Below, piece after piece: positions 2,032 through 24,460 of a DNA stretch of 32,000 nucleotides. Both the position numbers and the translations under genes were made by a program. Source of the stretch: Geobacter metallireducens GS-15 (GTDB lineage Bacteria > Desulfobacterota > Desulfuromonadia > Geobacterales > Geobacteraceae); NCBI RefSeq assembly GCF_000012925.1, contig NC_007517.1, forward strand, positions 3,270,001-3,302,000, in the 5' to 3' direction. Each line of letters opens with the position of its first letter. Position 1 is the first letter of the stretch. The notes beneath the pieces were generated by a model, which worked only from the letters and a program-made list of their open reading frames with translations, was not told the DNA's origin and ran no database searches.

Positions 2032-2067
2032 GGGACCGGGGACCGGGGACCGGGGACCGGGGAAAAA
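2032..2067. repeat. Heptad array A: GGGACC(GGGGACC)3GGGGAAAAA, left inverted repeat of the cassette
   Basis: Read directly from the sequence. It is the near-perfect reverse complement of 2465..2499. Confidence 0.95.
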
Positions 2068-2433
2068 CTAGTCACCTTGTGTCTCCTTGGTCCGGTAGTG
2101 GCGAATCAGGCCGTGGAGCATTTTGCGGAGTGACGCTATGCGGTTGAGAACAGACGTAACGTCCGCAATGTAGTTTAACTTATCAGCGATGATCAACTGA
2201 GTTTCAACTTCGGCAACCGAACCAAGAGCGATATAGAGAAACTGCACAAACTCCCTGTTCGTCTGCCTCGCGGCCCCTTCCGCAATATTCGACGGTATTG
2301 AGACTGCCGCCCGCCGCAACTGGTTTGTCAAACCATGCAGTTGTTCTTTCGGAAACGACTGAGTCGCAACATAAACCGACGTCACCAGCTCAACACCCGT
2401 TTTCCAAACATCCAACTCCTTATGATCCCGCAC
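2068..2433 (-). CDS. Four-helix-bundle protein, 23S rRNA intervening-sequence protein family (TIGR02436/PF05635-like; same fold family as DGR Avd)
   Basis: 121 aa. The signature LDVWK...QLRRAAVSIPSNIAEG...EF..FL.IA.GS..E is characteristic of this family. There is an AGGAGG RBS 4 nt upstream of GTG 2433. The stop at 2068 abuts array A. Confidence 0.85.
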   Translation of the reverse strand: MRDHKELDVWKTGVELVTSVYVATQSFPKEQLHGLTNQLRRAAVSIPSNIAEGAARQTNREFVQFLYIALGSVAEVETQLIIADKLNYIADVTSVLNRIASLRKMLHGLIRHYRTKETQGD

Positions 2434-2448
2434 AAATCCTCCTGACGG

Positions 2449-3450
2449 TCATAAGTCTTTGCGATTTTCCCGGTCCCCGGTCCCCGGTCCCCGGTCCCCT
2501 ACGTTGATTCGCTCGCGAATCACGTAAATCGGTTTCCCCTGCGCTTCGTAATAGGTGCGGGCGTTAAGCTCGCCGAGAAGGCCGAGAACGATGAACTGCA
2601 CCCCCATAAAGAGCAGGAACGCGGTGAGGATGAGGAGAGGGTTGCGATTCATGTTGATATGCTCGAAAAACTTGAAATAGAGGGTTGCTCCCCCGCTGAG
2701 AAAGCCCGCAAACAAGGTATAAATCCCCCACTTGCCGAAGAGCTGGATCGGCTTGGTGGAGTAGGCGAGGAGAAATTTCACCGTCATGAGGTCGAGGACC
2801 ACCCGCATGGTGCGGGAGATGCCGTACTTGCTCGTGCCGTGGAGCCGCGGATGATGCCGCACCGGCAGCTCCGTCACCCGCGCCCCCACTTGGGAGGCCA
2901 GGGCCGGCACGAAGCGGTGCATCTCGCCGTAGAGGTTCACCCCGTCGAGGACTTCCCGGCGGTAGGCCTTGAGGGTGCAGCCGTAGTCGTGGAGGTGGAC
3001 CCCGGTCATGCGGGAGATGAGGCCGTTGGCAATGATGGAGGGAAGCCGGCGGTTGATGAAGGTGTCCTGTCGGTCCTTGCGCCAGCCCGAGACCACGTCG
3101 TACCCTTCGTTGATCTTCGACAGGAGCATGGGGATGTCGGCCGGGTCGTTCTGAAGGTCGCCATCCATGGGGACGACAACTTCTCCCCGGGCGGCGTCGA
3201 AGCCGGCGGCCATGGCCGCTGTCTGCCCGAAATTGCGGCGGAAGCGGATCACCTTCACCCGCGAATCCCTCTCGGCAATCTGCCGCAGAAGCGGGAAAGA
3301 GCCGTCGCTGGAGCCGTCGTCCACCAGGATCAGCTCATAGTCGATGCCCGTCCCGGCCAGTGCTTCGGTAACCCGTCCATAGAGAGGGGGAATGTTCTCT
3401 TCTTCGTTGTAAATCGGTATAACGATACTCAGTTTCACCAAGGACCTCAC
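2449..3450 (-). CDS. GT2 polyprenyl-phosphate sugar synthase (DPM1/GtrB/ArnC-like)
   Basis: 333 aa. GT-A motifs are IVIPIYNEEENI, VDDGSSDGS and DGDLQNDP (DXD), followed by two C-terminal TM helices. The last ~17 codons ([16 protein letters not shown]) are read from array B and the cassette interior. There is a 4-nt overlap with the upstream gene. Confidence 0.85.
   Translation of the reverse strand: MRSLVKLSIVIPIYNEEENIPPLYGRVTEALAGTGIDYELILVDDGSSDGSFPLLRQIAERDSRVKVIRFRRNFGQTAAMAAGFDAARGEVVVPMDGDLQNDPADIPMLLSKINEGYDVVSGWRKDRQDTFINRRLPSIIANGLISRMTGVHLHDYGCTLKAYRREVLDGVNLYGEMHRFVPALASQVGARVTELPVRHHPRLHGTSKYGISRTMRVVLDLMTVKFLLAYSTKPIQLFGKWGIYTLFAGFLSGGATLYFKFFEHINMNRNPLLILTAFLLFMGVQFIVLGLLGELNARTYYEAQGKPIYVIRERINVGDRGPGTGDRENRKDL
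2465..2499. repeat. Heptad array B: TTTTCCC(GGTCCCC)4, right inverted repeat of the cassette
   Basis: Read directly from the sequence. It is the reverse complement of array A apart from one G. Confidence 0.95.
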
Positions 3451-4952
3451 TGGAGATTCGTCTTCTGCAAGGCAAGCCGCTCACGCAGGGCCGGAAGAGA
3501 TGCCTGAACATCCGCGGCCTCGCTAGGGTATTCCATGCCGCCGTACGCAGCAAAGAATTCGTAGTTTTTCACCGCCTCAGCCAGATTGCCCCGACGTTCC
3601 TCCGCCTTTGCCAGCGTCAGATACGCCCGGGTATTGAGGCGGTTCAGCCGTATTGCCTCCCGTGCATGGGCAACGGCCTTGTCAGTTTCGTCCGTCAGGA
3701 GATAGCTCAGGGCAACAGTCTCCTGAACCCAGGTCGAATCTGGATTCACCGCGACAGCATGGCGCCAGAGGGTATGCTCGGTGCGCCAGTATCCGTTCTG
3801 GATGGCGGTGAGAACGGCGAGGACGAGCAAAACGGCACAAAAGCCTGCCTCAACCTTCGCGCTTCTCAGTCTCTGGAGCAGCACGGCTAGGGCGAGGCCG
3901 ACACCGGGAAGGCAGAGATACATATACCTGTCGGCAGCCAAATAGGCAACCGGCACGAGGTTTGACACCGGCAACCAAAACACGAAAAACCAGCCGATCC
4001 CCAGCGACAGAAGGGGAAGGCGGCGGGCCGCCCGCACCATCACGGTCACCAGCACGACAAGGAGTGTACCGGAAAGAAGCGCCCACGGTTGCAGGAAACT
4101 CTCTGCCAGCCGGAACGTGTATTCAGGGGCAAGCCCCACGGGGAGGACGATCTTCCAGAGATAGAACCCGAATGCCGTCATCGACCCCATAAAAAGGGGA
4201 AGGTAGCTTCGGGAAGCCATGAAACTGTTCTTAGAGTAAATGGTCAGGAGCTGCTCGGGCCGGATGAACCCTCGGAACGTGTACAGCAGATACGCCGCGG
4301 CAATGGCTCCGGACACGGCAAGAAGCAGGGGGCGACGGAGGAGAATTCGCCGTTCCCGTGGCATCCCGTAACACTCCACGAGAATGACGAGCAGGGGAAG
4401 GGTAATCACCGTCTCGTTGGCAAGGAGCGCAACGACATAGCCTGCAACGGCAACGGCCATAAACGCCACCCGCCGTCCACCGGCCAAAGCGGCAGCCTTC
4501 ACATACCCGTAGAGCGAAACCAAGGAGAAGAAGAGCGTCAGGAGTTCCTTGCGGTGCGAAAGATTCGCAACCGATTCGGACTGGAGGGGGTGTACGAGGA
4601 AGAAAAGAGCACCCAACAGGGCGTACGGGAGTTCGACCCCGAGCAGTCCAAAGACCAGAACCAGAAGAAAACCGTTCATCCCGTGCCAGGCGAGCTGCTG
4701 AACCCGGTACCCCGCCGGCTTTTCACCGAACAGGTGATACTCCGGGATATAGGTCAGTTCCCGCAGGGGACGACCGGGGCGACTATTCTCAACAAAGCCT
4801 TTAAGGGAATGGGCGTCGGGGTTTTGCACAATGACCGGCACATCGTCATAGGTCCAGTCGTTGAGGAAGGTATTCCCGTACACCACCACGGTCGTCGCAA
4901 GGAAGAACAGCAGGACCGTTCTCTTCCTGATCCCTGTCAAACACCCGGTCAC
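3447..4952 (-). CDS. GT-C type membrane glycosyltransferase with C-terminal TPR repeats (PMT/TMTC/ArnT-like)
   Basis: 501 aa. The N-terminal region is polytopic, with an acidic first-loop motif NDWTYDDVPVIVQN. The C-terminus is TPR-like (AYLTLAKAEERRGNLAEAVKNYEFF). It is translationally coupled on both sides by ATGA-type overlaps. Confidence 0.7.
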   Translation of the reverse strand: MTGCLTGIRKRTVLLFFLATTVVVYGNTFLNDWTYDDVPVIVQNPDAHSLKGFVENSRPGRPLRELTYIPEYHLFGEKPAGYRVQQLAWHGMNGFLLVLVFGLLGVELPYALLGALFFLVHPLQSESVANLSHRKELLTLFFSLVSLYGYVKAAALAGGRRVAFMAVAVAGYVVALLANETVITLPLLVILVECYGMPRERRILLRRPLLLAVSGAIAAAYLLYTFRGFIRPEQLLTIYSKNSFMASRSYLPLFMGSMTAFGFYLWKIVLPVGLAPEYTFRLAESFLQPWALLSGTLLVVLVTVMVRAARRLPLLSLGIGWFFVFWLPVSNLVPVAYLAADRYMYLCLPGVGLALAVLLQRLRSAKVEAGFCAVLLVLAVLTAIQNGYWRTEHTLWRHAVAVNPDSTWVQETVALSYLLTDETDKAVAHAREAIRLNRLNTRAYLTLAKAEERRGNLAEAVKNYEFFAAYGGMEYPSEAADVQASLPALRERLALQKTNLQ

Positions 4953-5962
4953 GGCGTCAACCGTCCGTCATTGTCGGCGCGCGCAACGCCGGCGGCGGCC
5001 CACGGCATCCCCAACTCCTTAATCACCCGCACCGCCACCGCCGGTGGCTCTGTCTGAGACTGTGCGAAACGGGGTCGGAGCACCCCCTTAAGCAACCCCG
5101 CCCCGTACGACAGATGGAGGGTTGGAAAGAGTATAAACAGCAAAGGGATTGCAGCCGGAGCCCTTCCCTGCCATGCTGCGGCAACGGCAGCTGCAATAAG
5201 TAACGCGCCGTAACAGATCAAGGGGATAAACCACAACAGCGTCGGTGCCCAGGGGAGCAGCAGAAGATAGGCGAGAAAAAACGCCGGCGCGAAATCGATC
5301 CCGTGGCGGAGGCCGGCAATGCGCGTCTGCTCTCCCCGTCCGGTCCCGTAGCCGAAAAACTGGCGCATAAAAGCCCGAAAGCTTGGCCGCTGGCTCCGAT
5401 AAATCGCCAACTCCGGGTCGTGGACCAGGAGCCATCCATCGGTCAGGAGGCGATCCATAAGCTCGTTTTCTTCATTCGGGTAGAGGCGTTCATCGAGCCC
5501 TCCAAAGGCAAGGAAGAGTTCCCGGCGGAAGGCCAGATTGCAGAGGATCAGCTCCCGCTCGCTTGAGGGACGTGCGGCGCCGGTCCGGCGGTAGCGGTTG
5601 CGCGCCCCGCCGCCACCGAAGGGAGAGGAAATAACGAGCCCCACAGCCCGCTGGAAGAAGGTGTCGGTTGCCGGAGTAAGGGACGGTCCCCCCACTGCCG
5701 CCACACGCGGATCAACGAAGCGCTCGACCGCTCGCTGCAAAAAGGCGGGATCAACCAGCGAGTCGTCATCGAGGAAATATACCAGCTTCCCCTTGGCCAT
5801 GGCAGCTGCCCGGTTCCGCTGGCGGCTCGGCGAACACCCTTCGGCGACAAGCACCTCAATGCTCCCGGCCGGGTAGTTAACCGTGCGGAGCCGCTCCACA
5901 GCCCGAACCTCGCCCCCCGGGCGGACGGGAATTATGATCGAAACCGGCTGATTATCATTCAT
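4949..5962 (-). CDS. Glycosyltransferase family 2 with a C-terminal membrane domain
   Basis: ORF 4949..6007. The likely start is MNDNQPVSIIIPVR (ATG 5962). It has an FLDDDS DXD-type motif and C-terminal hydrophobic helices. Confidence 0.75.
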   Translation of the reverse strand: MNDNQPVSIIIPVRPGGEVRAVERLRTVNYPAGSIEVLVAEGCSPSRQRNRAAAMAKGKLVYFLDDDSLVDPAFLQRAVERFVDPRVAAVGGPSLTPATDTFFQRAVGLVISSPFGGGGARNRYRRTGAARPSSERELILCNLAFRRELFLAFGGLDERLYPNEENELMDRLLTDGWLLVHDPELAIYRSQRPSFRAFMRQFFGYGTGRGEQTRIAGLRHGIDFAPAFFLAYLLLLPWAPTLLWFIPLICYGALLIAAAVAAAWQGRAPAAIPLLFILFPTLHLSYGAGLLKGVLRPRFAQSQTEPPAVAVRVIKELGMPWAAAGVARADNDGRLTP

Positions 5963-6042
5963 CCTTGAATGCCTTGAAAAACACAAAAACCGGGAGATCC
6001 CGGTCATGACGTTTGATGCGAAATGGCCTGTCCGGCAGCCGG

Positions 6043-8235
6043 TCAGAACGACTTTTTCATGGAGGCCATCAGGCGCTTCTCGACCCGTTCATCATCCTTG
6101 CGTTTTCCGTAACTGTAGTCGATATTGAACTGAAACTTGCGGAAATTGAGCCCCACATAACCGTTGTAGATGAATTCAGGGGCGTTTCTTGGCAGCAAGA
6201 GCGAATAAGCGACATTGCCGCCAAGGTACAGGTTTCGGAGCGGATAATACCGGGCGCCGAGCAGGAAGCGCTTCCTCCCCGTGGTCGTTGACGTTGACGA
6301 AATCGTGTCGCTCTGGGATATGGTGAACTCTTCGGTCAGCTCCAGAAGTTTACGCTGCTGGCCGCCCAACTGATAAAACGAATAGGTAAGCCTCTGCATC
6401 AGATCCACATAGGTGGAGTTGTTTCCCTTTTCGTCCCGTTTGTAAATCATATAGCGCACCAGGGCGTCAAGGGAGCGGTTCGGCGTATACTGGGCACTGC
6501 CGGTGTGCTGCAGATCGGTTGAGCGGCCATCGGCATTGCTGCGCAGAGAGACGCGATTTTCCATGTTCAAGCGCAGGTTGTCAAGGGTGTAGTCAACCCG
6601 GTTGCTAACCGTGGTCAGGTAGTCCGTAGTGGCCTGTGAACTCACGAGAACATCTTCGGTAGCAGTCAGGGAGACGGTTAACCGCGAAAGCGGGAGCCAG
6701 GAGAGGCCGGCAGTGGTGACGGAGCGGTAATAGTCATTGGGCTGCTCCTCACGGCGGAACACATCGTTTGAGTTGCCGAAGTTGGTCTGGGTAGTGATTG
6801 AGTAGCTGTCAGTCAGTGCCGCGCTGTTGCCCCGCACCGCGGTCACGGATTCATCGAGGTTCAAGGTCAGTTGCGGGTTTACCCGGTAACCGAGCCGTCC
6901 CCTGGCGTTCTGGAAGAGATAGCTTGACGCCCCCTCCCTCTCGGAATCGAGATAGCGGATATTGTAGCTCCCCCCCACGGTAAATTGGTCGGAAAAGCGT
7001 CTCGTGCTCATGGTCTCCAGCAGGGCTTCCAGTCCCAGGGTCTTTGTCCCGTTGGATTCGGCATCCTCGACCGTATACCGTTGGGAAAGGGTAAAGGGAG
7101 ACCGTTTGAAGCTCTCCAGCCGGAACATGGCACTGGTGTTGTTGTCGATCGTCGTTGTCAGGCGGTTCTGCTTTACCTCACGGTCGCGCCGGGTAACCGA
7201 CGCATTCCAACTGGAATCCATGCCGAACGCCCCCGACAGGTAGAGGGGGATGTTTCTCTCCAGGCGGATCTCGTTGCCCTCGCGCTCCCGGGAGAAGGTG
7301 AGAAAACTCCTGGCGTCCCAGTTCTTACGCTGGGCCATGGCAAAAAAGTTCACGTCATAGGCATCGTTATGACTGGCAGACCGCTTGGTGTACTGGAAAT
7401 CAGTGGAGATCTTGAGCCAGTTGGTGAGGTCGATCCAGCGGCGCTGGAGCGTGTGGTCCACGGTCCCCAACTGCACCTGGCTCTCCTGGTAGCTCTGGCC
7501 CGGGTTGATGTAGTCATCGAAGCGGGTGGTCCGGTAGTGGAACCAGTTGTCGCGCTTGTTGAGGCTGACAAAGGCAAGCTTGCGCAACCGGGTGTCGACC
7601 GGCGTGATGCTTCTCGAATCCTCGTGCCGCTCGTCCCGATAATCCAGGAGCACCATGGGGATGTGACGAAAAATGGCGTTATAGCCGTTGGTGAGGCCGT
7701 TTTTGACACCCAATACCATCGTTGCCCCGGTGAGGGTGTTGGTCCCGGTGCCGTTCAGGGAGGTAATGATGTTCGGCTCGAAAATCCGCCCACTCCTCCC
7801 CTCGGTCAGCAGAGAATCCATGGTGAACGTCGAGGTGGTCATGTCGCGGGAGTAAGCCTTGAGCTTCAGGGGAAGCTCGGCCGGATCCAGCACCAGTTCA
7901 CCGTTGAACAGGATCTTGCCGGCGCTCGTCGAAGGTTTCCACGTGGCGTTGTCCGCCGCGTTGTAGACCCGTGAATCGAAGGAGGCCCACTCGTAGCCGA
8001 GGGCGCCGTTGTAAAAGCCGAAGCGGTCGCTGTACAGTTCGCCGCTCTTTTCGTACAGCACTGAATAGCGCTGGCTGAAGGTATGGGCGTCGGTTACCGT
8101 CGTCCCCTTTTCCTGCGCCTCGTAGGAGACATAGTTCAGCTCTATATCGCCCCGCAGCCGCGCCGACGCGCGGGACGCCTGCAGCAGCACCGCAGACATC
8201 AGCAGAAACGTTATGAGGAGCGAGCGACGAATCAT
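6043..8235 (-). CDS. Large predicted outer-membrane beta-barrel protein (~705 aa mature)
   Basis: ORF 6043..8379. A plausible start is ATG 8235, giving the signal peptide MIRRSLLITFLLMSAVLLQASRASA. The sequence has an alternating, Y/N/S/T/R-rich composition. The terminal residue is Phe (...MKKSF), typical of OMP barrels. The ORF upstream of 8235 runs through terminator hairpins. Confidence 0.65.
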   Translation of the reverse strand: MIRRSLLITFLLMSAVLLQASRASARLRGDIELNYVSYEAQEKGTTVTDAHTFSQRYSVLYEKSGELYSDRFGFYNGALGYEWASFDSRVYNAADNATWKPSTSAGKILFNGELVLDPAELPLKLKAYSRDMTTSTFTMDSLLTEGRSGRIFEPNIITSLNGTGTNTLTGATMVLGVKNGLTNGYNAIFRHIPMVLLDYRDERHEDSRSITPVDTRLRKLAFVSLNKRDNWFHYRTTRFDDYINPGQSYQESQVQLGTVDHTLQRRWIDLTNWLKISTDFQYTKRSASHNDAYDVNFFAMAQRKNWDARSFLTFSREREGNEIRLERNIPLYLSGAFGMDSSWNASVTRRDREVKQNRLTTTIDNNTSAMFRLESFKRSPFTLSQRYTVEDAESNGTKTLGLEALLETMSTRRFSDQFTVGGSYNIRYLDSEREGASSYLFQNARGRLGYRVNPQLTLNLDESVTAVRGNSAALTDSYSITTQTNFGNSNDVFRREEQPNDYYRSVTTAGLSWLPLSRLTVSLTATEDVLVSSQATTDYLTTVSNRVDYTLDNLRLNMENRVSLRSNADGRSTDLQHTGSAQYTPNRSLDALVRYMIYKRDEKGNNSTYVDLMQRLTYSFYQLGGQQRKLLELTEEFTISQSDTISSTSTTTGRKRFLLGARYYPLRNLYLGGNVAYSLLLPRNAPEFIYNGYVGLNFRKFQFNIDYSYGKRKDDERVEKRLMASMKKSF

Positions 8236-8264
8236 GACTCTACCAGGTACCGAAACGGGGACAA

Positions 8265-8301
8265 GGGGAAAAACGGCCCGGCACAGAGGGGAGCCGGGCC
8301 G
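8265..8301 (-). terminator. Rho-independent terminator/attenuator downstream of omcE
   Basis: On the minus strand: CGGCCCGGC-tcccctctgt-GCCGGGCCG followed by TTTTTCC. The stem is 9 bp of G/C. Confidence 0.7.
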
Positions 8302-8321
8302 AAAACGATCGTTTGACAGAA

Positions 8322-8352
8322 CCGATGGAGACGGGCTTGCCTTCTCCATCGG
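8322..8352 (-). other. 10-bp perfect hairpin immediately after the omcE stop
   Basis: CCGATGGAGA (8322-8331) pairs with TCTCCATCGG (8343-8352). No U-tract follows. It may be an mRNA 3'-end stabiliser. Confidence 0.5.
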
Positions 8353-8363
8353 CTCGTCACAAC

Positions 8364-9086
8364 CTACTTGATATGGCACCCGAGGCAGAGGGCGCTCCCC
8401 GCCATGGTGGAACGGAGGAACTTGGGATAGTTATAGGTAGTGTTTGTCTGCCCATGGACCGCATGGCACGAGGCGCACTCCAGGTTATTGGCAACGCCGT
8501 CTGCCTTGAACAGGGGGAATTTTTTACCGGCAAGTAGCGTGGCGTTGGCAACTATGCCGGCGTCCTTGGTCGAATCGTATACGAAGTTGACCGGATGCGA
8601 CTTGGTCAGGTCAGTACCGAAGTTCGCGCTACCGACAATTTTTGATGCAGCAGTTGTGGTATCACCACCATTCGGAATCAACGCGTTATTGGAAACCCCC
8701 ACCGGCTCGGCGCCGATCATGCTGCCGCCAAGTGCGCTGCCGTCATGGCAGCTCATGCAGAAGAGGGAGATACTGTCGGCGGTGAATCCGTTACGGGAGG
8801 GATTCGGCTTCATGTCAAAGGTCTGGGATGAGGTGTAGAGTTTGAAGCTGCTGGCGGTGTTTGTCGACGCGTTACGGTTCCACAGGGGGACCGCCTGGAC
8901 CGCATTGTGGGGGGTATGGCAGAAGACGCAGACCTGGTCGGTCTGGTTCGTACCGGGAGTGGTAAAACTCAGGTCATGCGGTGATCCCTTAATCCCCTTT
9001 ACCGTCCCAGAGGGTGCCGCACCCGAGGACGAAGCCATCCCCATCAGTGCAAGCGCTGCCAGTGTCATAAGAATCCTTCGTTTCAT
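8364..9086 (-). CDS. omcE: Tetrahaem c-type cytochrome, OmcE homologue
   Basis: 240 aa with a signal peptide. It has four CXXCH motifs (CVFCH, CMSCH, CASCH, CLGCH). Its position after ppcA-resB-ccsA-cyt-cyt-NHL matches the G. sulfurreducens GSU0612-GSU0618 order as I recall it. A strong AGGAGGAAGG RBS precedes it. Confidence 0.75.
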   Translation of the reverse strand: MKRRILMTLAALALMGMASSSGAAPSGTVKGIKGSPHDLSFTTPGTNQTDQVCVFCHTPHNAVQAVPLWNRNASTNTASSFKLYTSSQTFDMKPNPSRNGFTADSISLFCMSCHDGSALGGSMIGAEPVGVSNNALIPNGGDTTTAASKIVGSANFGTDLTKSHPVNFVYDSTKDAGIVANATLLAGKKFPLFKADGVANNLECASCHAVHGQTNTTYNYPKFLRSTMAGSALCLGCHIK

Positions 9087-9173
9087 TGTTCCTTCCTCCT
9101 CGTTATTGTGGGTTGTCGAGCACTATCCTCTGCTGTCCGTATCCCGACGGATCTCTTGTGTTACCACAACCAC

Positions 9174-9189
9174 AGCAACAACAATGCCA
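9174..9189 (-). promoter_or_regulatory. Candidate sigma-54 promoter for omcE
   Basis: The minus strand reads TGGCATTGTTGTTGCT. The GG and GC elements have the exact consensus spacing of TGGCAC-N5-TTGC. It lies ~90 nt upstream of the omcE ATG. Confidence 0.4.
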
Positions 9190-9516
9190 ACCTCAGCACT
9201 GAAACGTCGACTAGCTCCAACAAGAACCCTTCGCACCCCGGCGACCGCATCCAGTGTCTGAAATACACCATCTGCGAGCCCCACGCCCGGGATTCCCGCA
9301 CTTACCCTTTTCTTGACCGCCCCACGATTGCGGACAAAACCTTCCCCCGAAACAGTCAATCAGATGGCCCCTGTTCAGCTATTTCGCGTAAAATTTACGG
9401 AGATGAGGCGGACACCGAAACGTGGAAGTTTGGCAACTGACGAAAGCAGGTATGGAATGGAGACACAGGATCCGGCAGGCTGGAAAGGTGGAGAAGAGAG
9501 ATTTGAGCGGCACAAT

Positions 9517-9556
9517 GCGGCCCTCCACCACCCAGAGTAACGTGGTGGAGGGCCGC
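9517..9556 (-). terminator. 15-bp perfect hairpin downstream of the NHL gene (terminator-like, no U-tract)
   Basis: GCGGCCCTCCACCAC (9517-9531) pairs with GTGGTGGAGGGCCGC (9542-9556). It begins 9 nt after the stop at 9565. Confidence 0.55.
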
Positions 9557-9564
9557 TTCTGCCA

Positions 9565-10656: not shown

Positions 10657-10697
10657 ATTTTCCCCTCACTCCATGAGATTTACTGAGCAGTACTGGC

Positions 10698-10731
10698 TTT
10701 CCCGGTCCCTGGTCCCCAATCCCCAGTCCCG
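10698..10731. repeat. Heptad array C (degenerate): TTTCCC GGTCCCT GGTCCCC AATCCCC AGTCCCG
   Basis: Read directly. It has the same orientation and the same GGGAAA tail as array B. It sits in the 78-nt spacer between the octahaem gene's stop (10735) and the NHL gene's start (10656). Confidence 0.85.
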
Positions 10732-10734
10732 GCC

Positions 10735-17584: not shown

Positions 17585-17621
17585 AAAAAAATCTCCGTGG
17601 TGGATTTTCGTAATATTCGCC

Positions 17622-19187
17622 TTAGTGCCTGAAATGCCTCATCCCCGTGAAGACCATGGCCATGCCGTGCTCATCAGCAGCGGCGATCACCTCGGCGTCG
17701 CGCATGCTTCCCCCGGGCTGGATGACCGCCGTGATCCCCACGGCGGCGGCGTTGTCGATGCCGTCGCGGAAGGGGAAGAAGGCATCGGAGGCCATGACCG
17801 CCCCCTGCACCTCAAGCCCCGCGTGCTCCGCCTTGATGGCGGCGATGCGGGCCGAGTTGACCCGGCTCATCTGGCCGGCCCCGACGCCGATGGTCATGCC
17901 GTCCTTGCCATAGACGATGGCATTGGACTTCACGAACTTGGCCACCCGCCAGGCGAACTGGAGGTCGATCATCTCCTGCGCCGTGGGCTGGCGCTTCGAC
18001 ACCACCTTCAACTCGGCCGAGAGGGCCAAGTCAGTGTCCTGGACCAGAAGCCCGCCGTTCACCCGCTTGAAATCGAGGCGCTGGGCCGGCTGGGCCGGCC
18101 ATATGCCGCACTCCAGGAGCCGGACGTTTTTCTTGGCCGCCACCACCTCCACGGCCGCTTTGGAAACTGAGGGGGCGATGATCACCTCCACGAACTGGCG
18201 GTCACAGATGGCCTTGGCCGTCTCGGCGTCCAACTCGCCATTGAAGGCGATGATGCCGCCGAAGGCCGATTCGGGGTCGGTGGCGTAGGCCCGGTCGTAG
18301 GCCTCCAGGAGGTTCTTCCCGATGGCCACGCCGCAGGGGTTCGCGTGCTTGACAATGACGCAGGCGGGCCCTTCGCTGAACTGCTTCACGCACTCCAGGG
18401 CCGCGTCGGTGTCGCCGATGTTGTTGTAGGAGAGTTCCTTCCCCTGGAGCTGGCGGGCCGTAGAAACCGACGCCTCCTGCACCTGCCGCTCCACGTAGAA
18501 GGCGGCCGATTGGTGGGGGTTTTCGCCGTAGCGCATCTCCTGGGCCTTCTTGAACTGGAGGGTAATGGTGTCGGAATAGGTAGCGACCCCCTCCCCGGTC
18601 CGGGCGCCGAGCCAGTTGGAGATGGCGCCATCGTAGGCAGCGGTGTGCTGGTAGACCTTCACCGCCAGGCGGAAGTTGGTCTCCTTGGCAACGGAGCCGC
18701 CCGATGCCTTCATCTCGTCAAGGACCGTCCGGTAGTCGGCCGGGTCCACAACGACCGTCACGTCGGCGTTGTTCTTGGCCGCGGAGCGGAGCATGGTGGG
18801 GCCGCCGATATCGATGTTCTCGATGGCGTCCTCAAGGGTGCAGGCGGGATTGGCCACGGTGGCCTCGAAGGGGTAGAGGTTCACCACCACCATGTCGATG
18901 GGGAGGATGCCGTGTTCCTTCATGGTGGCCACGTGCTCCGGGTTGGAGCGCATGCCAAGGAGCCCGCCGTGGACCTTCGGATGGAGGGTCTTCACCCGGC
19001 CGTCCAGCATCTCGGGGAAGCCGGTGTGCTCGGACACGTCCTTCACCGTCAGGCCGGCATCCCGGAGCAGCTTTGCGGTGCCGCCGGTGGAGAGGATCTC
19101 GACGCCGTAGCCGGCCAGTTCCCTGGCGAACTCGACAATGCCGGTTTTGTCGGAAAGACTGATAAGCGCACGGGTAATCTTTGCCAT
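17622..19187 (-). CDS. purH: Bifunctional AICAR transformylase / IMP cyclohydrolase
   Basis: 521 aa. [20 protein letters not shown] and the C-terminal MRHFRH are all characteristic. Confidence 0.95.
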
Positions 19188-19222
19188 GGTGTCACTCCTT
19201 GAGAATTGAATTGATGAATCGA

Positions 19223-20497
19223 TCAGATTGTATGCGGGAAATTGATATGCTGCAGAAAGTGCTTCTCGAAGGCTGGGGTGCCGGAAAGTGGTATGACGCG
19301 GATCGTTCCGGCAAGATGGTCAACCGCCGCAAGCCCCCCGGAGGTAAGGAGCGCGTGCTCAACGCCGCGAAGCGCCCCTTCCCGGACGAAACTCGTCGTT
19401 TGTACCATGTTTTCCGTGAAGACTCCAAGGCTTTTTAGGCTATGCGGGTCGAGAACGGCGCCGAAGGAGCCGGTCAGGACCACGCTCCCCACCGCCCCGC
19501 TTTCGATCCCCGCCCGGTCGAACAGAACCTCCATGCCGGCCCGGATCGCCCCCTTGGCCAGCTGCACCTGACGGATGTCCTCCTGGGAGAGCCAGACCGT
19601 CCTCGTCGCATCCCGATGGAGCACGAAGGCCCGCTCATCCCCCATGGTCGTAAGCCGGTTGCCGATGCTCGACGGGATCTCCTCCGGCGGCAGGAGCCGG
19701 CCGGTGGAGTCGATGGCCCCCTGATCGAGGAGCAATGCAATGGCCGAAAGGACGCCGGAGCCGCAGATGCCCGTGGCCGGCTTCCCCTCGACGGTCGAGA
19801 CGAGCAGGCGCTCACCGTCAAAAGTCACCCCGCTGATGGCACCGGGAAGCGCCGCCATGCCGCACGAAAGGTTCCCTCCCTCAAAGGCAGGGCCGGCCGC
19901 GGCAGAGGTGGCGAGGAGCTTTCCGTCCGCCGCCAGGGCGATCTCGCCATTGGTTCCCATATCGAGGTAAAGACGGGGACCAGGGACCGGGGACCGGGGA
20001 CCGGGAACGCCATGGAGGAACGCCACGGTGTCGCCGCCGACAAAGCCGCCGGGGAGGGGAAAGAGGAATACCTCAGCCGGAAGATCCCAGCCGAGCCCAA
20101 CAGCGGGAACGGTTTTGCCGGCGGTGAAGAGGGGACGGTACGGGGGGAACGCGAGGGCATCAACCGGAAGGTCCAGCAGAAGATGCTCCATGGCGGGATT
20201 GCCGGCCACCGCTATAGTGACGAGGTGCTCCGGAGATCTCCCGACGCTCTCCAGAAGCTCCCCCGCCAGGCGGCCAATCGCCCCGCGGACCAACTCCGCC
20301 ATCCGGTGTCGAGCCTCTTTGGAACGGCAGGCGGCATCGAGGCGCGCAATGACATCGGCACCGAATTCACGCTGGGGGTTCAGGCTGCCGGCAACGGCCA
20401 ACCGCTCGCCGGTGGCCATATCGAGGAGGGAGGCGGCCAGGGTCGTGGTGCCAAGGTCAACGGCAATGGCAAGCCGATCAGGCGATGACAACGGCAT
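19223..20497 (-). CDS. ASKHA-fold protein, DUF4445 family (RACo C-terminal-domain-like), carrying an in-frame heptad array
   Basis: ORF 19223..20536. The likely start is [19 protein letters not shown] (ATG 20497). The ASKHA phosphate motifs DLGTTT and DMGTNGE are present. There is no N-terminal ferredoxin domain. It overlaps the selD 3' end by 20 nt. Confidence 0.75.
19975..20007. repeat. Heptad array D: GGGGACC AGGGACC GGGGACC GGGGACC GGGAA, inside a coding sequence
   Basis: Read directly. It encodes [12 protein letters not shown] just upstream of the DMGTNGE motif. It shares 31 identical nt with array E. Confidence 0.95.
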
Positions 20498-21509
20498 GCT
20501 CCCGGGGAGGGAGAACCCCACCCACGGCGACGGCAAAGAGCCCTCGGTCCCGGGCCATGGAGAGGAAGGAGTCGGCGAATTGCGGCGAAAGGGTGATGAG
20601 GAGCCCCCCGGAGGTCTGGGGGTCGAAGAGGGGGATGAGCCGGCCTCCCGCCCCGGCGGAAACGGAGACTAAGGGGGTATAGTGATCGCGGTTGCGGTAG
20701 CAGCCGGCCGGCACGAGGCCATCGGCCACAAGGTCCTCGACTCCTCCCATGAGGGGAACGGCGTCAAGGGCGATTTCGAGGGTAACGCCGGCTCCCCGGG
20801 CCATCTCGCAGGCATGCCCCAGAAGGCCGAAACCGGTGACATCGGTGCAGGCGGAAGCCTCGCATTCCAGCATGAGCCCCGCAGCCGAAGCGTTCAGGAG
20901 CGCCATCCAGCGGATCGCTTCGTCGACAACGCCGGGTGCAACCATGTCGGCCTTGATGGCCGTGGAGACTATCCCCGTCCCCAGGGGCTTGGTGAGGATG
21001 AGCCTGTCGCCGGGGCGGGCCGTGGAGTTGCGCACGATCCGCCCGGGGCTGATGAGACCGGTGACCGAGAGACCGTATTTCAGCTCGTGGTCCTCCACCG
21101 TGTGCCCCCCCACGAGGCAGGCCCCCGCCTCCCGCACCGCGTCAAGGCCACCGGCCATGATGTCGGCCAGGATCTGTCCCGGCAGGGTGCAGGCCGGGAA
21201 GAAGGCCAGGTTCATGGCGGTCACCGGCCTTCCACCCATGGCGTAGACATCGGAGAGGGCGTTGGCCGCCGCAATCCGGCCGAAAGTGAACGGGTCATCC
21301 ACCAGGGGGGTGATGATATCCACCGTATCCACCAGGGCGAGCCCCTCCCCTATCCGGTAGACCCCCGCGTCGTCGGCGGTCTCCGGCCCCACGAGGAGGT
21401 TCGGATCGTCTCCCTTCCCCAGGATGCCGCTCAGTGCGTCTTCCAGGCCCGCCGGGCCCAGCTTGGCCGCTCAGCCGGCCGCTTTTACGAGGGATGTCAG
21501 CTTGATCAT
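20478..21509 (-). CDS. selD: Selenide, water dikinase (selenophosphate synthetase) with an in-frame UGA selenocysteine codon at 21471-21473
   Basis: I joined ORF 20478..21392 to the last 12 codons of ORF 21471..21884, which are in the same frame. The result is [51 protein letters not shown]. This matches the SelD N-terminal glycine-rich loop, where Sec or Cys sits (E. coli: GAGCGCK...DPNLLVGNETRDDAAVY). Confidence 0.85.
21443..21473 (-). promoter_or_regulatory. UGA(Sec) codon plus a downstream GC-rich hairpin (SECIS candidate)
   Basis: The mRNA reads UGA GCGGCCAAG CUGGGCCC-GGC-GGGCCUGG. An 8-bp stem (including G-U pairs) starts 10 nt after the UGA, which is the position expected for a bacterial SECIS. 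Confidence 0.5.
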
Positions 21510-21514
21510 CACAG

Positions 21515-22654
<1,140 letters not shown>

Positions 22655-22759
22655 GCCCCTTTTCCTACCACTTCCCGCCGGTGGTGTAAAGCATGAACCT
22701 GACACTGTGATGCCCCCGCTTCAGGGTGAAATCCGCCCGGCGTCAACGGGTTAAATCCA

Positions 22760-22788
22760 TTGACTTAACGGGAAAATTCGGTTAGCTT
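22760..22788 (+). promoter_or_regulatory. Candidate sigma-70 promoter of the thi operon
   Basis: TTGACT-17 nt-TAGCTT, placed just upstream of the riboswitch. Confidence 0.45.
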
Positions 22789-22799
22789 TGTCTACACAA

Positions 22800-22951
22800 A
22801 AGCAGCCTGCTGGGGGAGTTCTTCGAGAACTGAGACGGGCACCGCCCGAACCCTTACCACCTGATCCGGGTAATGCCGGCGTAGGGAAGCGGCCAGAGAC
22901 CTCGTTTACCTCGTTGAGTTCTGGGACCGTGACCATCGTCACGGTTTTTTT
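22800..22951 (+). ncRNA. TPP (THI-box) riboswitch with a terminator expression platform
   Basis: The conserved THI-box core is CUGGGGGAG...CUGAGA...ACCCUUACCACCUGAUCCGGGUAAUGCCGGCGUAGGGAAG. It is followed by the hairpin ACCGTGAC-catc-GTCACGGT and a T7 run (22926-22951). Confidence 0.9.
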
Positions 22952-22966
22952 GTTTGGGAGATCACC

Positions 22967-24460
22967 ATGGGCAGCAACGGCCACAATCTCCGGCTGGTCG
23001 TCAATCGCGACAAGCAGGACTCCCCCATCCGGGGGGTGTACCTGGTCACCGACCACGGCGACCGTCTCGCGGAGCGGGTGGAGGCGGCAATCGACGGCGG
23101 GGTCCGCATCGTCCAATACCGGAACAAGGGAAAGGACCGGGCCCAGCGCTACGCCGTGGGTGAGGAACTACGGGACCTCTGCAGCCGGCGGGGGGTGATC
23201 TTCATCGTCAACGACGACCTGGATCTGGCGCTGCAACTCAAGGCCGATGGCATCCACCTGGGGCAGGAGGACGGCGACCCCCGTATTGCCCGGCGCGAAC
23301 TGGGACCGGGTAGAATCATCGGCGTCTCCACCCATACCATGGAAGAAGCCCTGGCGGCCCAGGCGGCGGGGGCCGACTACATCGGCTTCGGCGCCATGTT
23401 CCCCACCAACAGCAAGGAGATCGGGCACCTGGCCGGGCCCGAGGGGCTCGCCGCCATCCGCAGCCGAATCATGATCCCCATTGTTGCCATCGGCGGCATC
23501 AGCCGGGACAACGGCCCACGGGTGGTCGACGCCGGAGCCGACGCCCTGGCGGTCATCTCGGCGGTTCTCGCCCATCCGGACCCGTTCCTGGCCGCGACGG
23601 AGCTGGGCCTTCTCTTCAACCGGCGCGCACCACATCCCCGGGGGGCTGTGCTCACCATTGCAGGAAGTGACTCGGGGGGCGGAGCCGGCATCCAGGCCGA
23701 CCTCAAGACCGCGACACTGCTGGGGAGCTACGGCTCATCGGTCATCACGGCGCTCACTGCCCAGAATACCCGGGGGGTCTCCGGCATTCACGGCGTCCCC
23801 CCCTCCTTCGTGGCCGAGCAGCTCGATGCGGTCCTTTCCGACATCCCCGTGGACACGGTAAAGACCGGCATGCTCTTCTCTGCCGAAATCATCGCCACCG
23901 TGGCCGACAAGCTGGCCGAGTACCGGAAGCGGATCGTGGTGGTGGACCCGGTCATGGTCGCCAAGGGAGGCGCCCCCCTCATCGACCGGGGAGCCGTGAA
24001 CGTCCTCAAGGACCGCCTCATGCCCCGCACCTACCTCCTCACCCCCAACATCCCCGAGGCGGAACGGCTCACGGGGCTCACCATCGTCGACGAAGAGGGA
24101 ATGCAGGAGGCGGCCCGGCGCCTCTTCCGTCTCGGTGCCCGCAACGTCCTCGTCAAGGGGGGGCATCTGGTGGCCGGTGATGCGGTGGACATCCTCTTCG
24201 ACGGCTCCGCCTTCCACCGTTTCACCGCGCCCCGCATCCTCAGCAAGAACACCCACGGAACCGGCTGCACCTACGCCGCGGCCATCGCCACCTACCTGGC
24301 CCAGGGAGAGCCGCTCCGGGAGGCCGTTGGCCGCGCCAAGGAGTTCGTCACCGCCGCAATCCGCCTGGGCCAGCCCCTGGGCCGGGGGCACGGACCGGTG
24401 AACCACCTCCTCGCCGCGCTTGAAGTCGGGGACCAGGGACCGGGGACCGGGGACCGGTAA
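22967..24460 (+). CDS. thiED: Fused thiamine-phosphate synthase (ThiE, N-terminal) / hydroxymethylpyrimidine-phosphomethylpyrimidine kinase (ThiD, C-terminal)
   Basis: 497 aa. ThiE motifs are GVYLVTD, IVQYRNK and GADYIGFGAMFPT. ThiD motifs are VLTIAGSDSGGGAGIQADLKT and HGTGCTYAAAIA. The last 10 codons ([10 protein letters not shown]) are heptad array E. Confidence 0.9.
   Translation: MGSNGHNLRLVVNRDKQDSPIRGVYLVTDHGDRLAERVEAAIDGGVRIVQYRNKGKDRAQRYAVGEELRDLCSRRGVIFIVNDDLDLALQLKADGIHLGQEDGDPRIARRELGPGRIIGVSTHTMEEALAAQAAGADYIGFGAMFPTNSKEIGHLAGPEGLAAIRSRIMIPIVAIGGISRDNGPRVVDAGADALAVISAVLAHPDPFLAATELGLLFNRRAPHPRGAVLTIAGSDSGGGAGIQADLKTATLLGSYGSSVITALTAQNTRGVSGIHGVPPSFVAEQLDAVLSDIPVDTVKTGMLFSAEIIATVADKLAEYRKRIVVVDPVMVAKGGAPLIDRGAVNVLKDRLMPRTYLLTPNIPEAERLTGLTIVDEEGMQEAARRLFRLGARNVLVKGGHLVAGDAVDILFDGSAFHRFTAPRILSKNTHGTGCTYAAAIATYLAQGEPLREAVGRAKEFVTAAIRLGQPLGRGHGPVNHLLAALEVGDQGPGTGDR
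24428..24457. repeat. Heptad array E: GGGGACC AGGGACC GGGGACC GGGGACC GG, followed by the TAA stop
   Basis: Read directly. It has the same orientation as arrays A and D. Confidence 0.95.

Follow-up and report, generated by a model that had tools for sequence, protein, structure and literature searches.

Why should a 32-kb window of the Geobacter metallireducens GS-15 genome (the whole stretch of DNA analysed here, at about 3,270,001-3,302,000) carry five copies of the same short heptad array, each of them inside or close beside a coding sequence? The first-pass annotation had described the copies as polar arrays of GGGGACC and had proposed that they form G-quadruplexes and might also act as slipped-strand contingency tracts. 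We identified five arrays, referred to as A to E, at the positions given in that annotation. A scan with a two-unit probe, allowing at most 2 mismatches, returned 17 matches in the window against 1.4 expected, and none of 100 shuffles attained 17. TRF reported four period-7 arrays of 4.4-4.6 copies (2032-2063, 2469-2499, 19974-20005 and 24427-24457), and the fifth, array C, is degenerate (minus strand, 10704-10731; 5 mismatches in 28 nt). A degenerate-array scan found no sixth array in the window. A 2-unit match at 7455-7468 was set aside as lying outside the GGGGACC family.

Each array is a 35-nt module of exactly five heptads, four of them GGGGACC-like and one A-rich. The fifth heptads are GGGGAAA, GGGAAAA, GGGAAAG, GGGAACG and GGTAATA, and the polar A-rich ends are as first described in all five arrays. 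The strand assignments were likewise correct: mRNAs carry the G-rich strand of B, C and E, and the C-rich strand of A and D.

The five arrays themselves are already known. They were catalogued in 2009 within the 49-copy family Gmet_H401-H449 (Aklujkar et al. 2009, BMC Microbiol 9:109, PMC2700814), whose members were named 'four tandem heptanucleotide repeat' elements with the unit GGGACCG. Adding 3,270,000 to the window coordinates gives the published coordinates of Gmet_H436, H437, H438, H439 and H440, and the strands, sequences and neighbouring genes of the five arrays also agree. The authors proposed that the family represents putative regulatory RNA or 'global regulatory elements', and in their Table S4 most copies lie between the 3' end of one gene and the 5' end of another, or in the linkers of fused proteins (PMC2700814). 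The genome-wide census stands at 49 copies in GS-15, which are non-randomly placed and not confined to this region, and 11 plus/minus pairs of neighbouring elements occur among them. In the window, placement is specific to cistron junctions or domain linkers, and arrays A and B form an inverted pair around one gene; neither feature was part of the first-pass annotation. The gene, Gmet_2891, was labelled 'conserved hypothetical protein' in the genome paper (PMC2700814), which describes neither the inverted-pair architecture around a PF05635 gene, nor an occurrence outside Geobacter, nor a mechanism.

The inverted pair and the gene between its arms make up the following features, in the order of the transcript:

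2465-2499, minus strand: array B (Gmet_H437), the 5' arm on the transcribed strand, (GGGGACC)4 GGGAAAA
2434-2464, minus strand: leader from the 5' arm to the cassette gene, read from the sequence
2068-2433, minus strand: cassette gene Gmet_2891, encoding a 121-aa four-helix-bundle protein (PF05635 23S_rRNA_IVP / TIGR02436)
2031-2067, G-rich strand plus: array A (Gmet_H436), the 3' arm
2015-2029, minus strand: small hairpin GGACGC-UCC-GCGUCC, found by inspection

This cassette is positioned between two glycosyltransferase genes, GT2 and GT4. Array B doubles as coding sequence and gives the upstream GT2 gene (2449-3450) its final 16 codons. The stop codon of GT2 (2449-2451) lies in the leader together with a Shine-Dalgarno sequence, AGGAGG (2438-2443), that is followed 4 nt later by the GTG start. 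Array A begins directly after the TAG stop of Gmet_2891 and, since its G-rich strand is the plus strand, it supplies the minus-strand transcript with a C-rich 3' arm: (UUUUUCCCC(GGUCCCC)3GGUCCCG). The small hairpin separates this arm from the probable GT4 ATG (2012) and, by inspection, is kept through paired changes in orthologs (GCACGC/GCGUGC in L214 and GAACCC/GGGUUC in L215). Arms A and B are predicted to pair into a terminal 34-38-bp stem in a 501-nt transcript with an MFE of -216 kcal/mol, where shuffled sequences reach -177 +/- 7 (z = -5.7); taken singly, the arrays show no folding advantage over shuffled versions (z -1.05 to +0.64). Gmet_2891 matches Pfam PF05635 ("23S rRNA intervening-sequence protein") with an E value of 1.2e-36, the NCBIfam models TIGR02436 and NF008911, and PDB entry 2GSC (Xanthomonas XCC0516; E 3e-25), which has 5 chains. 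No rRNA was matched by Rfam in the window, and no reverse transcriptase, template repeat or variable repeat adjoins Gmet_2891 on the gene map.

We consider it likely, with a probability of roughly 0.6, that the arrays are 35-nt arm modules of a hairpin cassette that resembles an intervening sequence and carries a PF05635 gene. The complete form (A, Gmet_2891 and B), in which inverted arms bracket the PF05635 gene, would have been inserted between the cistrons of an operon. Once transcribed into the polycistronic RNA, the G-rich arm on the 5' side is predicted to anneal with the C-rich arm on the 3' side, giving a near-perfect duplex of ~35 bp. By analogy with S23p-encoding 23S rRNA intervening sequences, we infer that RNase III may cut this arm duplex, so that the cassette transcript would be set free and the cistrons on either side parted from each other. 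Such release would explain why insertion is tolerated in operons, or in the rRNA of other taxa. The single arms C, D and E probably derive from cassettes and would persist at cistron junctions. The elements possibly spread by recombination between arrays or by mobilisation in trans; neither a transposase nor a target-site duplication was found.

The same architecture recurs across phyla. Array-flanked PF05635 genes were found in Xanthomonas, Pseudoxanthomonas, other Geobacteraceae and cyanobacterial plasmids. At carA/carB, both Pseudoxanthomonas (L016) and Xanthomonas (L010) have a PF05635 gene flanked by GGGGACC arrays in convergent orientation, and the cyanobacterial plasmid copies are surrounded by inverted heptads of GGGAGTA, GGGTGTA, TCAGGAG or GGTGACA. 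Nearby array pairs in 120 genome loci were convergent in 43 cases and divergent in 6, with spacers that are unrelated to each other. Complementarity between the flanks ranked above the 95th percentile set by neighbouring ORFs at 47 of 65 metagenomic loci with a PF05635 gene, and above the 99th at 29, in a sample taken from the 80 proteins closest to that of Geobacter and not from the whole family. The arms are mostly period-7 tandem repeats whose unit varies by lineage: strongly periodic upstream arms had period 7 in 22 loci and period 8 in 5, and G exceeded C in 25 of these 27. Only 1 of 140 random windows was comparably periodic. A few loci (L035, L210 and L213) have direct instead of inverted arrays, which counts against the cassette reading.

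Orthologous cassettes occupy the same GT2/GT4 junction in four other Geobacteraceae. Their proteins are 64-81% identical to Gmet_2891, and dN/dS values of 0.07-0.10 place the gene under strong purifying selection. In these orthologs both arms change together (GGGGACC/GGTCCCC, GGGGACT/AGTCCCC and CGGRACT/GAGTCCC), although this co-variation could reflect gene conversion between inverted repeats instead of selection for pairing.

The remaining three arrays are single arms:

10697-10731, minus strand: array C (Gmet_H438), a single degenerate arm, CGGGACT GGGGATT GGGGACC AGGGACC GGGAAAG
19975-20009, plus strand: array D (Gmet_H439), a single arm in a RACo-like/DUF4445 gene
24428-24462, plus strand: array E (Gmet_H440), a single arm upstream of thiC

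Array C is located between the stop of a cytochrome c gene (10735) and the start of an NHL gene (10656). Array D encodes about 11-12 residues of its host gene (19223-20536, minus strand), in the stretch that links the Pfam domain Raco_middle to RACo_C_ter. Array E supplies thiE/thiD with its final 10 codons and its TAA stop. The heptad is free of stop codons in every frame, which is why the single arms C, D and E are tolerated, and its Gly/Pro/Arg/Ser-rich flexible peptide allows arrays to be absorbed as C-terminal tails, linkers and gene fusions. The absence of stop codons had been offered from the outset as the reason why copies can sit within ORFs; this explanation is supported, and the peptide read-outs given with it hold for B (the GT2 tail), D (the RACo-like protein) and E (the ThiE/ThiD tail).

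Arms also occur singly and around short spacers without an ORF, as hairpin-only elements. At the thiE/D-thiC junction, the site of array E, there is an intact PF05635 cassette in L124, the two arms of L124 with the gene internally deleted to ~90 nt in L125, and one unit in G. benzoatilyticus; the arms of L124 and L125 are hexamers of GGTAAA and not GGGGACC, so their homology with array E is positional only. L125 is the one documented case of decay from cassette to hairpin. No remnant of a PF05635 gene was detectable in 33 of 35 short convergent GGGGACC pairs, and no cassette was found at the array D site in 120 orthologs, so single arms may arise independently.

An unlikely alternative is that an oligomeric protein binds the arrays, either a homopentameric PF05635 protein in ring-type contact with five tandem heptads of single-stranded RNA or DNA (5 x 7 = 35 nt) or regulators of the IHF/HU type, which the genome paper had suggested, with the single arrays as a trans-target regulon. 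The regularity of the modules suits this explanation: every one has exactly five heptads, and unit counts cluster tightly at four, the value in 81 of 134 arrays drawn from many phyla. The physical linkage of gene and arrays across phyla, the purifying selection on the protein and the five chains deposited for the PDB relatives 2GSC and 2RLD are also consistent with it, as is the proposal of 'global regulatory elements' in the genome paper. A loose core, RGKGAYN, fits many of the units by inspection, yet unit sequence does not track protein similarity. Xanthomonas proteins that are 40-44% identical have GGGGACC in common with Geobacter, whereas metagenomic proteins that are 55-62% identical have GGTGATT or AGTGAYG. 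Units seem to follow the G+C content of the genome, and the presence of many copies within ORFs, on either strand, also speaks against binding sites.

It is improbable that the arrays are non-autonomous repeats similar to REP/REPIN or MITE elements, with a transposase encoded elsewhere and the PF05635 gene as an occasional trapped passenger. Singlets and hairpin-forming inverted doublets at intercistronic operon sites would be expected of such repeats, copy numbers are high, and a related paired-repeat family of G. metallireducens is the target of the IS110-family element ISGme8. Between species, the presence or absence of whole modules varies, not +/-1 unit, which also fits a mobile repeat; array C, for example, occurs in G. 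grbiciae, and G. benzoatilyticus lacks it through a ~50-nt indel. However, comparison of the occupied and empty sites revealed no target-site duplication at C, single arrays are not palindromes and the doublet spacers are unrelated to each other. Moreover, the association with PF05635 (47 of 65 loci) is too frequent and too precise for chance trapping, and it outlasts changes of the repeat unit.

We regard it as highly improbable that the arrays act through a G-quadruplex or i-motif, in DNA or mRNA, that modulates transcription, translation or replication of adjacent genes. The G-rich strand of all five arrays does formally match the (G3+N1-7)4 motif, as first noted; each array has four or five tracts of G3-4, and the G4Hunter scores range over 1.29-1.63. 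The modal four units are the minimum for an intramolecular quadruplex, but the same length is kept equally in arms that have no G tracts. PF05635 arms elsewhere retain the ~7-nt period, the ~4-5 units and the inverted pairing, often without G3 tracts (for example, the unit is CGGAACT in the Geobacter sp. AOG1 ortholog of the cassette and AGTGACG, GGTGACA, TCAGGAG or GGTAAA elsewhere). At least three G3 runs were present in only 4 of the 27 periodic upstream arms, G tracts were absent from the other 23, and the orthologous arm in L216 has none. In two of the five arrays it is the C-rich strand that is in the mRNA and, where both arms are present, a duplex of 30+ bp, which their pairing favours, would compete with a quadruplex. 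Since so many homologous arms have no G tracts, the comparison speaks against selection for a quadruplex; the capacity to form one looks incidental and is not supported as the essence of the arrays.

Unit number was compared across strains and species. Over 12.4 kb, the window shows 100% identity with contig AGJM01000011.1 of G. metallireducens RCH3, and unit number is the same in GS-15, RCH3 and two independent sequencing runs (Logan). In G. grbiciae, where the flanking DNA is only 97.4% identical, all five arrays have the same unit number, as does array D in G. benzoatilyticus. Such invariance is an outcome that the first-pass annotation had itself named as refuting. Seven is not a multiple of three, the RACo-like linker array differs in length between genera (over deep time) and a 5' arm has grown to about 27 units in Geobacter sp. 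AOG1, but this constancy of four units between strains and species, together with the shortness of the tracts, their location in 3' ends, linkers and intergenic DNA instead of 5' coding regions or promoters, and the frame kept by all ortholog length variants, argues against slipped-strand contingency tracts in which +/-1 heptad switches the frame of the host gene, an initial suggestion to which we now attach hardly any credence.

Returning to the hairpin cassette, a broader proposal can be put forward speculatively. PF05635 genes with inverted arms of about five heptads may constitute one widespread, undescribed cassette class that unites Gmet_H4-type repeats, STRR and S23p intervening sequences. 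A homopentamer might bind the array with one heptad per subunit, in the manner of ring proteins that read periodic RNA, and so govern how the cassette is paired, processed or copied; the single arrays scattered elsewhere might serve as docking or exchange sites. If true, this would bring together three oddities of long standing: Geobacter repeats of the Gmet_H4 type, the cyanobacterial STRR heptanucleotides and the intervening sequences (IVS) of 23S rRNA that carry S23p.

Several known systems resemble these elements in part. REP elements are themselves palindromes with a conserved GTAG end and are tied to a RAYT transposase. The REP, BIME and REPIN sequences of enterobacteria and pseudomonads are, like the arrays, short, GC-rich, transcribed intercistronic singlets and inverted doublets, and the Geobacter doublets form a long hairpin as REPINs do. 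Unlike REP, the single Geobacter units are non-palindromic tandem heptads and the linked gene encodes a four-helix bundle; unlike MITEs, the elements have no conserved internal sequence and no target-site duplication at site C. Avd, the accessory protein of diversity-generating retroelements, is a PF05635-related pentameric four-helix bundle that acts on nucleic acid with a partner. Gmet_2891 belongs to the same fold family, but it has no adjoining reverse transcriptase, template repeat or variable repeat.

Further parallels are found in the short tandemly repeated repetitive (STRR) sequences of cyanobacteria, heptanucleotides such as CCCCAGT that Mazel and colleagues reportedly described in 1990. 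STRR units are CCCCAGT, TTGGTCA or CAACAGT and were defined in heterocystous cyanobacteria. Like the Geobacter arrays, STRR consist of a few heptanucleotides in tandem, dispersed both within genes and between them. CCCCAGT has GGGGACT as its complement, one base from GGGGACC, and GGGGACT is the unit of the orthologous Geomobilimonas cassette (L215). Cyanobacterial PF05635 genes are also flanked by inverted heptad arrays. The Geobacter unit, in contrast, is GGGGACC and its host is not a heterocystous cyanobacterium, and we found no link of STRR to PF05635 genes or to hairpin architecture.

The S23p-encoding IVS of 23S rRNA, known from Leptospira and Coxiella burnetii, are sited in helix 25 or 45. 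The Coxiella IVS measures 428-444 nt, contains an S23p ORF and is closed by a terminal stem of 28 bp; RNase III cuts it in vitro (PMC4990558). The A-B cassette differs in lying between protein-coding cistrons (GT2/GT4) and not in 23S rRNA, and in having arms of tandem heptads that are also scattered singly through the genome; RNase III cutting, shown for the IVS, is proposed for the Geobacter cassette by analogy only. Otherwise the two are alike: both are ~430-470 nt long, with a PF05635/S23p ORF inside terminal inverted repeats that give a stem of ~28-35 bp (here predicted), and both are sporadically distributed and regarded as selfish.

Five heptanucleotide arrays lie in the window, and all five claimed in the first-pass annotation were present by probe, TRF and 28-nt scan. 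A (GGGGACC)2 probe with at most 2 mismatches gave 17 matches in the window against 1.4 expected, a number reached in 0 of 100 shuffles. TRF reported period-7 arrays at 2032-2063, 2469-2499, 19974-20005 and 24427-24457, and a permissive 28-nt scan of the window added only a degenerate minus-strand copy at 10704-10731. On inspection, every array is 35 nt long and consists of exactly five heptads, four GGGGACC-like and an A-rich fifth (GGGGAAA, GGGAAAA, GGGAAAG, GGGAACG or GGTAATA); the shared polarity already remarked upon arises because this fifth heptad is A-rich. These arrays and the features around them are as follows.

2015-2029 (-), small hairpin between the 3' cassette arm and the GT4 start codon
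2031-2067 (+), array A
2068-2433 (-), Gmet_2891, PF05635 gene
2465-2499 (-), array B
10697-10731 (-), array C, single, after the stop of a multihaem cytochrome gene and before the start of an NHL-repeat gene
19975-20009 (+), array D, single, in the linker between two Pfam domains of a RACo-like/DUF4445 protein
22802-22904 (+), TPP riboswitch (75 bits) upstream of thiE/thiD, ordinary
24428-24462 (+), array E, single, forming the last ten codons and stop of thiE/thiD, upstream of thiC
24483-24667 (+), near-perfect extended hairpin of about 185 nt, CGTGAGGCGAGGGAGCCTG...CAGGTTTCCTCGCCTCACG, directly 3' of array E and between thiE/D and thiC
26070-26144 (+), tRNA-Thr(CGT) gene, ordinary
26929-26958 (+), period-10 tandem repeat GAGGATTCTG, 3.1 copies (TRF)

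The five arrays are already known, having been catalogued since 2009 with no known function. They belong to Gmet_H401-H449 of the G. metallireducens GS-15 genome paper by Aklujkar et al. (PMC2700814), whose Figure S2 lists H436 (+, 3272024), H437 (-, 3272462), H438 (-, 3280694), H439 (+, 3289968) and H440 (+, 3294421); these are arrays A to E, at window coordinate + 3,270,000. The authors regarded them as putative regulatory RNAs or global regulatory elements, without a mechanism, and in their Table S4 most copies appear as "3' of gene X, 5' of gene Y" inside operons or fall in the linker of a fused protein, among these Ddl-FtsQ, a CobQ fusion, SucB and ThiE/ThiD (PMC2700814). The heptad is free of stop codons and gives the peptides expected from the first-pass annotation when arrays B, D and E are translated within their genes: 10 residues and then ENRKDL* as the end of the GT2 gene for B, 12 residues inside the RACo-like gene for D, and the 10 residues that end ThiE/ThiD for E. 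The predicted RNA structure of single arrays is no better than chance, and Rfam at gathering threshold gave no match in the window at the arrays or at the hairpin after array E.

We consider it likely, with good confidence, that PF05635 cassettes have these arrays as their arm module. Mutually inverted, arrays A and B tightly flank gene 2068-2433 (-), whose product belongs clearly to PF05635 ("23S rRNA-intervening sequence protein", E 1e-36) and is matched by TIGR02436 ("four helix bundle protein") as well. Among solved structures its closest relative is Xanthomonas XCC0516 (PDB 2GSC), deposited with five chains. The transcribed strand of the cassette reads:

5' part: GT2 gene, (GGGGACC)4 GGGAAAA, 21 nt, AGGAGG, 4 nt, GTG start
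3' part: four-helix-bundle ORF to TAG, TTTTTCCCC(GGTCCCC)3GGTCCCG, small hairpin, GT4 ATG

Folded as RNA, the arms form a predicted terminal stem of 34-38 bp around the ORF (MFE -216 kcal/mol vs -177 +/- 7 in shuffles, z = -5.7). The G. metallireducens RCH3 contig AGJM01000011.1 also encodes the 121-aa protein and is 100% identical to the window across 12.4 kb. The hairpin at 2015-2029 has equivalents in a Geobacter MAG (L214), Geomobilimonas (L215) and locus L217, where paired substitutions preserve the stem (GGACGC/GCGTCC, GCACGC/GCGTGC, GAACCC/GGGTTC); it may serve the downstream GT4 gene as a signal for translation control or processing. The annotated ORF of that gene, Gmet_2890 (846-2075, -, 409 aa), begins at a GTG that overlaps the cassette gene stop and reads through array A, and appears to have been artificially lengthened by this stop-free array. 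Orthologs and the conserved N-terminus M-[VL]-APTP-[FY]-FAD suggest ATG 2012 as the true start. In a Logan contig (L122, SRR29714132) the cassette is inverted between A and B relative to window 2034-2484 and is otherwise 100% identical. This could be a real inversion across the inverted arms; we did not count it as evidence for one, since the junction lies in a repeat of at least 31 nt, which a k=31 assembly graph cannot orient.

Arrays of this kind are not confined to Geobacter. A (GGGGACC)3 scan of one genome per species returned at least 120 loci, the matches listed including Xanthomonas, Pseudoxanthomonas, Rhodanobacteraceae, Acidobacteriota, Gemmatimonadota, Streptomyces, Verrucomicrobiota, Methylomirabilota and Geobacteraceae. 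Among these matches listed, the unit count peaks sharply at four (81 of 134 arrays), arrays at most 1.5 kb apart are convergent (+/-) in 43 cases vs divergent (-/+) in 6, and nearby pairs have inward-facing A-rich ends and mutually unrelated spacers. The GS-15 genome has 11 convergent pairs. A PF05635 gene sits inside a convergent pair at the carA/carB junction of both Pseudoxanthomonas wuyuanensis (L016) and Xanthomonas codiaei (L010), the two proteins aligning with the Geobacter protein at 40-44% identity, and PF05635 genes also adjoin arrays in a verrucomicrobial MAG and a Methylomirabilota MAG.

Other origins for these pairs were considered and rejected. Short convergent pairs do not look like decayed PF05635 genes, since of 35 spacers tested only those of the 2 intact cassettes gave a score and the 33 short ones lacked a remnant; such decay is retained for L125 alone. 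Telomerase-like 3'-end addition could account for the constant convergent chirality, and a single element with terminal inverted repeats is simpler. Viruses were dismissed as a vehicle, with only 3 matches in the viral collection. One of its contigs (L220 from IMG/VR, 5590-6170) carries same-strand GGGGACC arrays of about 15 and about 6 units, which flank a 430-nt AT-rich segment with repeated 'ATAGGCCTATTTGCTCCATTAACCG' blocks. The published GS-15 table lists heptad arrays at both ends of Gmet_3158 and Gmet_2563, sigma-54-dependent response-regulator genes (array-flanked regions at GS-15 3,553,644-3,555,318 and 2,909,777-2,911,465), and therefore genes other than PF05635 may be bracketed.

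We also scanned metagenomes with a 4-sequence protein alignment, a 7-sequence alignment being too diverse, and collected 80 PF05635 loci, the closest relatives of the Geobacter protein; the flanks were complete in 65 of them. The upstream and downstream flanks, 130 nt each, had a median complementarity score of 33, vs 15-16 for mismatched loci or neighbouring ORFs, and this score exceeded the neighbours' 95th percentile in 47 of the 65 loci and the 99th in 29. The upstream arm was strongly periodic at 27 loci (period 7 in 22, period 8 in 5), with G exceeding C in 25 of them; 30-mers of such periodicity occurred in 1 of 140 random windows. The arm unit varies with lineage (AGTGACG, AGTGATG, GGTGATT, GGGATAT, GGGACAA, GGTTAAAA and others), as it does around PF05635 genes on cyanobacterial plasmids:

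Nostoc edaphicum: inverted GGGAGTA arms, nrdB/nrdA junction
Calothrix: inverted GGGTGTA arms
N. punctiforme: inverted TCAGGAG arms
Anabaena sp. 90: inverted GGTGACA arms, cas6/cas4 junction

Across the loci compared, the general design is a PF05635 gene between inverted arms, each of some four to five heptads in tandem, of which the 5' arm is the G-rich one; GGGGACC is thus its high-G+C version. At three loci (L035 1779-2330, L210 460-1050, L213 480-1050) the two arrays flanking the PF05635 gene are in direct orientation, each C-rich on the coding strand; these might be arms of adjacent elements. In the Geobacter MAG L214 the polysaccharide cluster that carries the first PF05635 gene contains a second (5562-5930) at a distance of 2 kb, with a GCGAGAG/GCGAAAG-like purine-rich repeat upstream and complementary CTCGC/CTTTCGC downstream. 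Two further families of paired opposite-strand repeats have been published for GS-15, one of four octanucleotides GTTGCTYN (24 pairs) and one of five heptanucleotides MTYCTGA (8 pairs), and many class-1 repeat pairs have the IS110-family ISGme8 inserted alongside (PMC2700814). The complement of MTYCTGA, TCAGRAK, agrees with the arms (TCAGGAG/TCAGAAG) of the PF05635 gene on the N. punctiforme plasmid (L211). Both families may belong to the same element class as the heptad arrays.

The cassette at the GT2/GT4 junction is old, to judge from its orthologs (64-99% identical) in G. grbiciae, a Geobacter MAG, Geomobilimonas luticola, Geobacter sp. AOG1 and a JGI contig. Gmet_2891 orthologs have a dN/dS of 0.07-0.10, and the cassette protein is therefore functional. 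The arm pairs of these cassettes differ:

GGGGACC/GGTCCCC: G. metallireducens, L214 and L217
GGGGACT/AGTCCCC: Geomobilimonas
CGGRACT/GAGTCCC: Geobacter sp. AOG1, the 5' arm grown to about 27 units

Where units differ, cognate arms out-pair non-cognate arms. This co-variation indicates selection for pairing or gene conversion between arms. The main rival is that a protein binds the periodic array; its most attractive version places a single homopentamer on the five heptads. The case for sequence-specific recognition is weakened by unit sequences that do not track protein similarity. A REP/REPIN/MITE-like origin with the PF05635 gene as passenger is disfavoured, the association with PF05635 being too frequent and too precise.

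The sites of the single arrays were compared in G. grbiciae and G. benzoatilyticus after anchoring with BLAST. At site C the array is present in G. grbiciae and missing from G. benzoatilyticus through a ~50-nt indel, and comparison of the occupied and empty sites gave no target duplication and no transposase. Essentially every Geobacteraceae ortholog (P0001-P0120) of the RACo-like protein, whose gene lies at 19223-20536 in the window, has an array at site D. The linker reads GPRSPVPGP in many of them, even at ~60% overall identity, and GHQLPVTSH or SPLTPHPS in others, where the DNA is (CCAGTCA)n or (CGTCTCA)n; linker units by lineage are GGTCCCC, CCAGTCA, CGTCTCA and probably CCCCTCA (including L124 6031-6127 and L125 8688-8784), with in-frame expansions of 5-25 residues in some orthologs. 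Within these alignments, the 7-nt period outlasts the unit sequence. At the thiE/D-thiC junction, four states, set side by side, form a series:

L124: intact PF05635 cassette, arms of GGTAAA-type hexamers
L125: arms as in L124, gene internally deleted to ~90 nt
Window genome and G. grbiciae: single GGGGACC array
G. benzoatilyticus: one unit only

The hairpin that follows array E looks like a second, unrelated hairpin insertion. It is found in G. grbiciae and is missing from G. benzoatilyticus along with three of four heptads; a 245-nt stretch containing it folds at -118.7 kcal/mol (z = -6.1), and Rfam gave no match across 24380-24720 at E<=1. No second TPP riboswitch was found in the window ahead of thiC.

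G-quadruplex and contingency functions rank lowest among the explanations, and two of the three ideas in the first-pass annotation fail. The arrays had been proposed as slipped-strand contingency tracts. Unit number is unchanged between GS-15 and RCH3 and in two independent runs, all five counts are the same in G. grbiciae despite 97.4% identity of the surrounding DNA, and that of array D is the same in G. benzoatilyticus; this constancy is the outcome that the annotation itself had held to speak against contingency. Differences between species consist of presence or absence of the whole module, or of in-frame changes over deep time. The G-quadruplex motif match is real (G4Hunter 1.3-1.6), and yet G3 tracts are missing from positionally equivalent arms, such as the AOG1 ortholog arm, at least three being present in only 4 of 27 periodic arms. 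What is conserved across the arms compared is period, length, strand asymmetry and complementarity rather than G3 tracts, which makes the capacity for a quadruplex look like a by-product of high G+C. A local quadruplex effect is possible for arrays B, C and E, whose G-rich strand is in the mRNA.

In the literature, of which our coverage was incomplete so that an earlier description is possible, we found no link of heptad arrays to PF05635/TIGR02436 cassettes, no account of the cross-phylum distribution or arm co-variation of the 35-nt module, and no statement that the arrays are akin to cyanobacterial STRR repeats and to the intervening sequences of rRNA, a kinship that is likely. PF05635/TIGR02436 is a very common family of unknown function whose genes, in lineages as far apart as Geobacter, Xanthomonas and the cyanobacteria, habitually lie between inverted tandem-heptad arms, and this pattern makes the function of the family directly testable. 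If the link holds, it would give dispersed heptanucleotide repeats a concrete, testable origin, extend rRNA intervening sequences into protein-coding operons, and show how housekeeping genes gain C-terminal tails, linkers between domains and fusions from such repeats (ThiE/ThiD and RACo-like in the window; Ddl-FtsQ and CobQ fusions in the published table). There is also a warning for annotation, as ORFs through stop-free arrays can be artificially extended, for example Gmet_2890, called from a GTG inside the cassette.

Our overall account, to which we assign a probability of about 0.6, is that A-Gmet_2891-B would be a selfish cassette of the intervening-sequence (IVS) type resident in an operon. 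In the transcript the two arms would anneal, and the paired arms might be processed by RNase III, a step for which, arguing by analogy, we put the odds a little below even. ORF-less pairs would be hairpin-only relatives, and single arms solitary copies or remnants; arrays are tolerated in and between genes because they are stop-free and code for a flexible peptide. Parts of this account are weakened by the lack of a transposase or target duplication seen at site C, the 33 of 35 short pairs without a gene remnant and the direct instead of inverted arrays at some loci. The closest functional precedent for A-Gmet_2891-B is the S23p IVS of 23S rRNA. In Coxiella this element, 428-444 nt long, has a terminal stem of 28 bp and carries an S23p ORF; RNase III excises it (PMC4990558). 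The Geobacter cassette shares its ORF family and has a comparable form, 469 nt with a predicted stem of ~35 bp, and it is on this likeness that we propose an IVS-type selfish element in a protein-coding operon.
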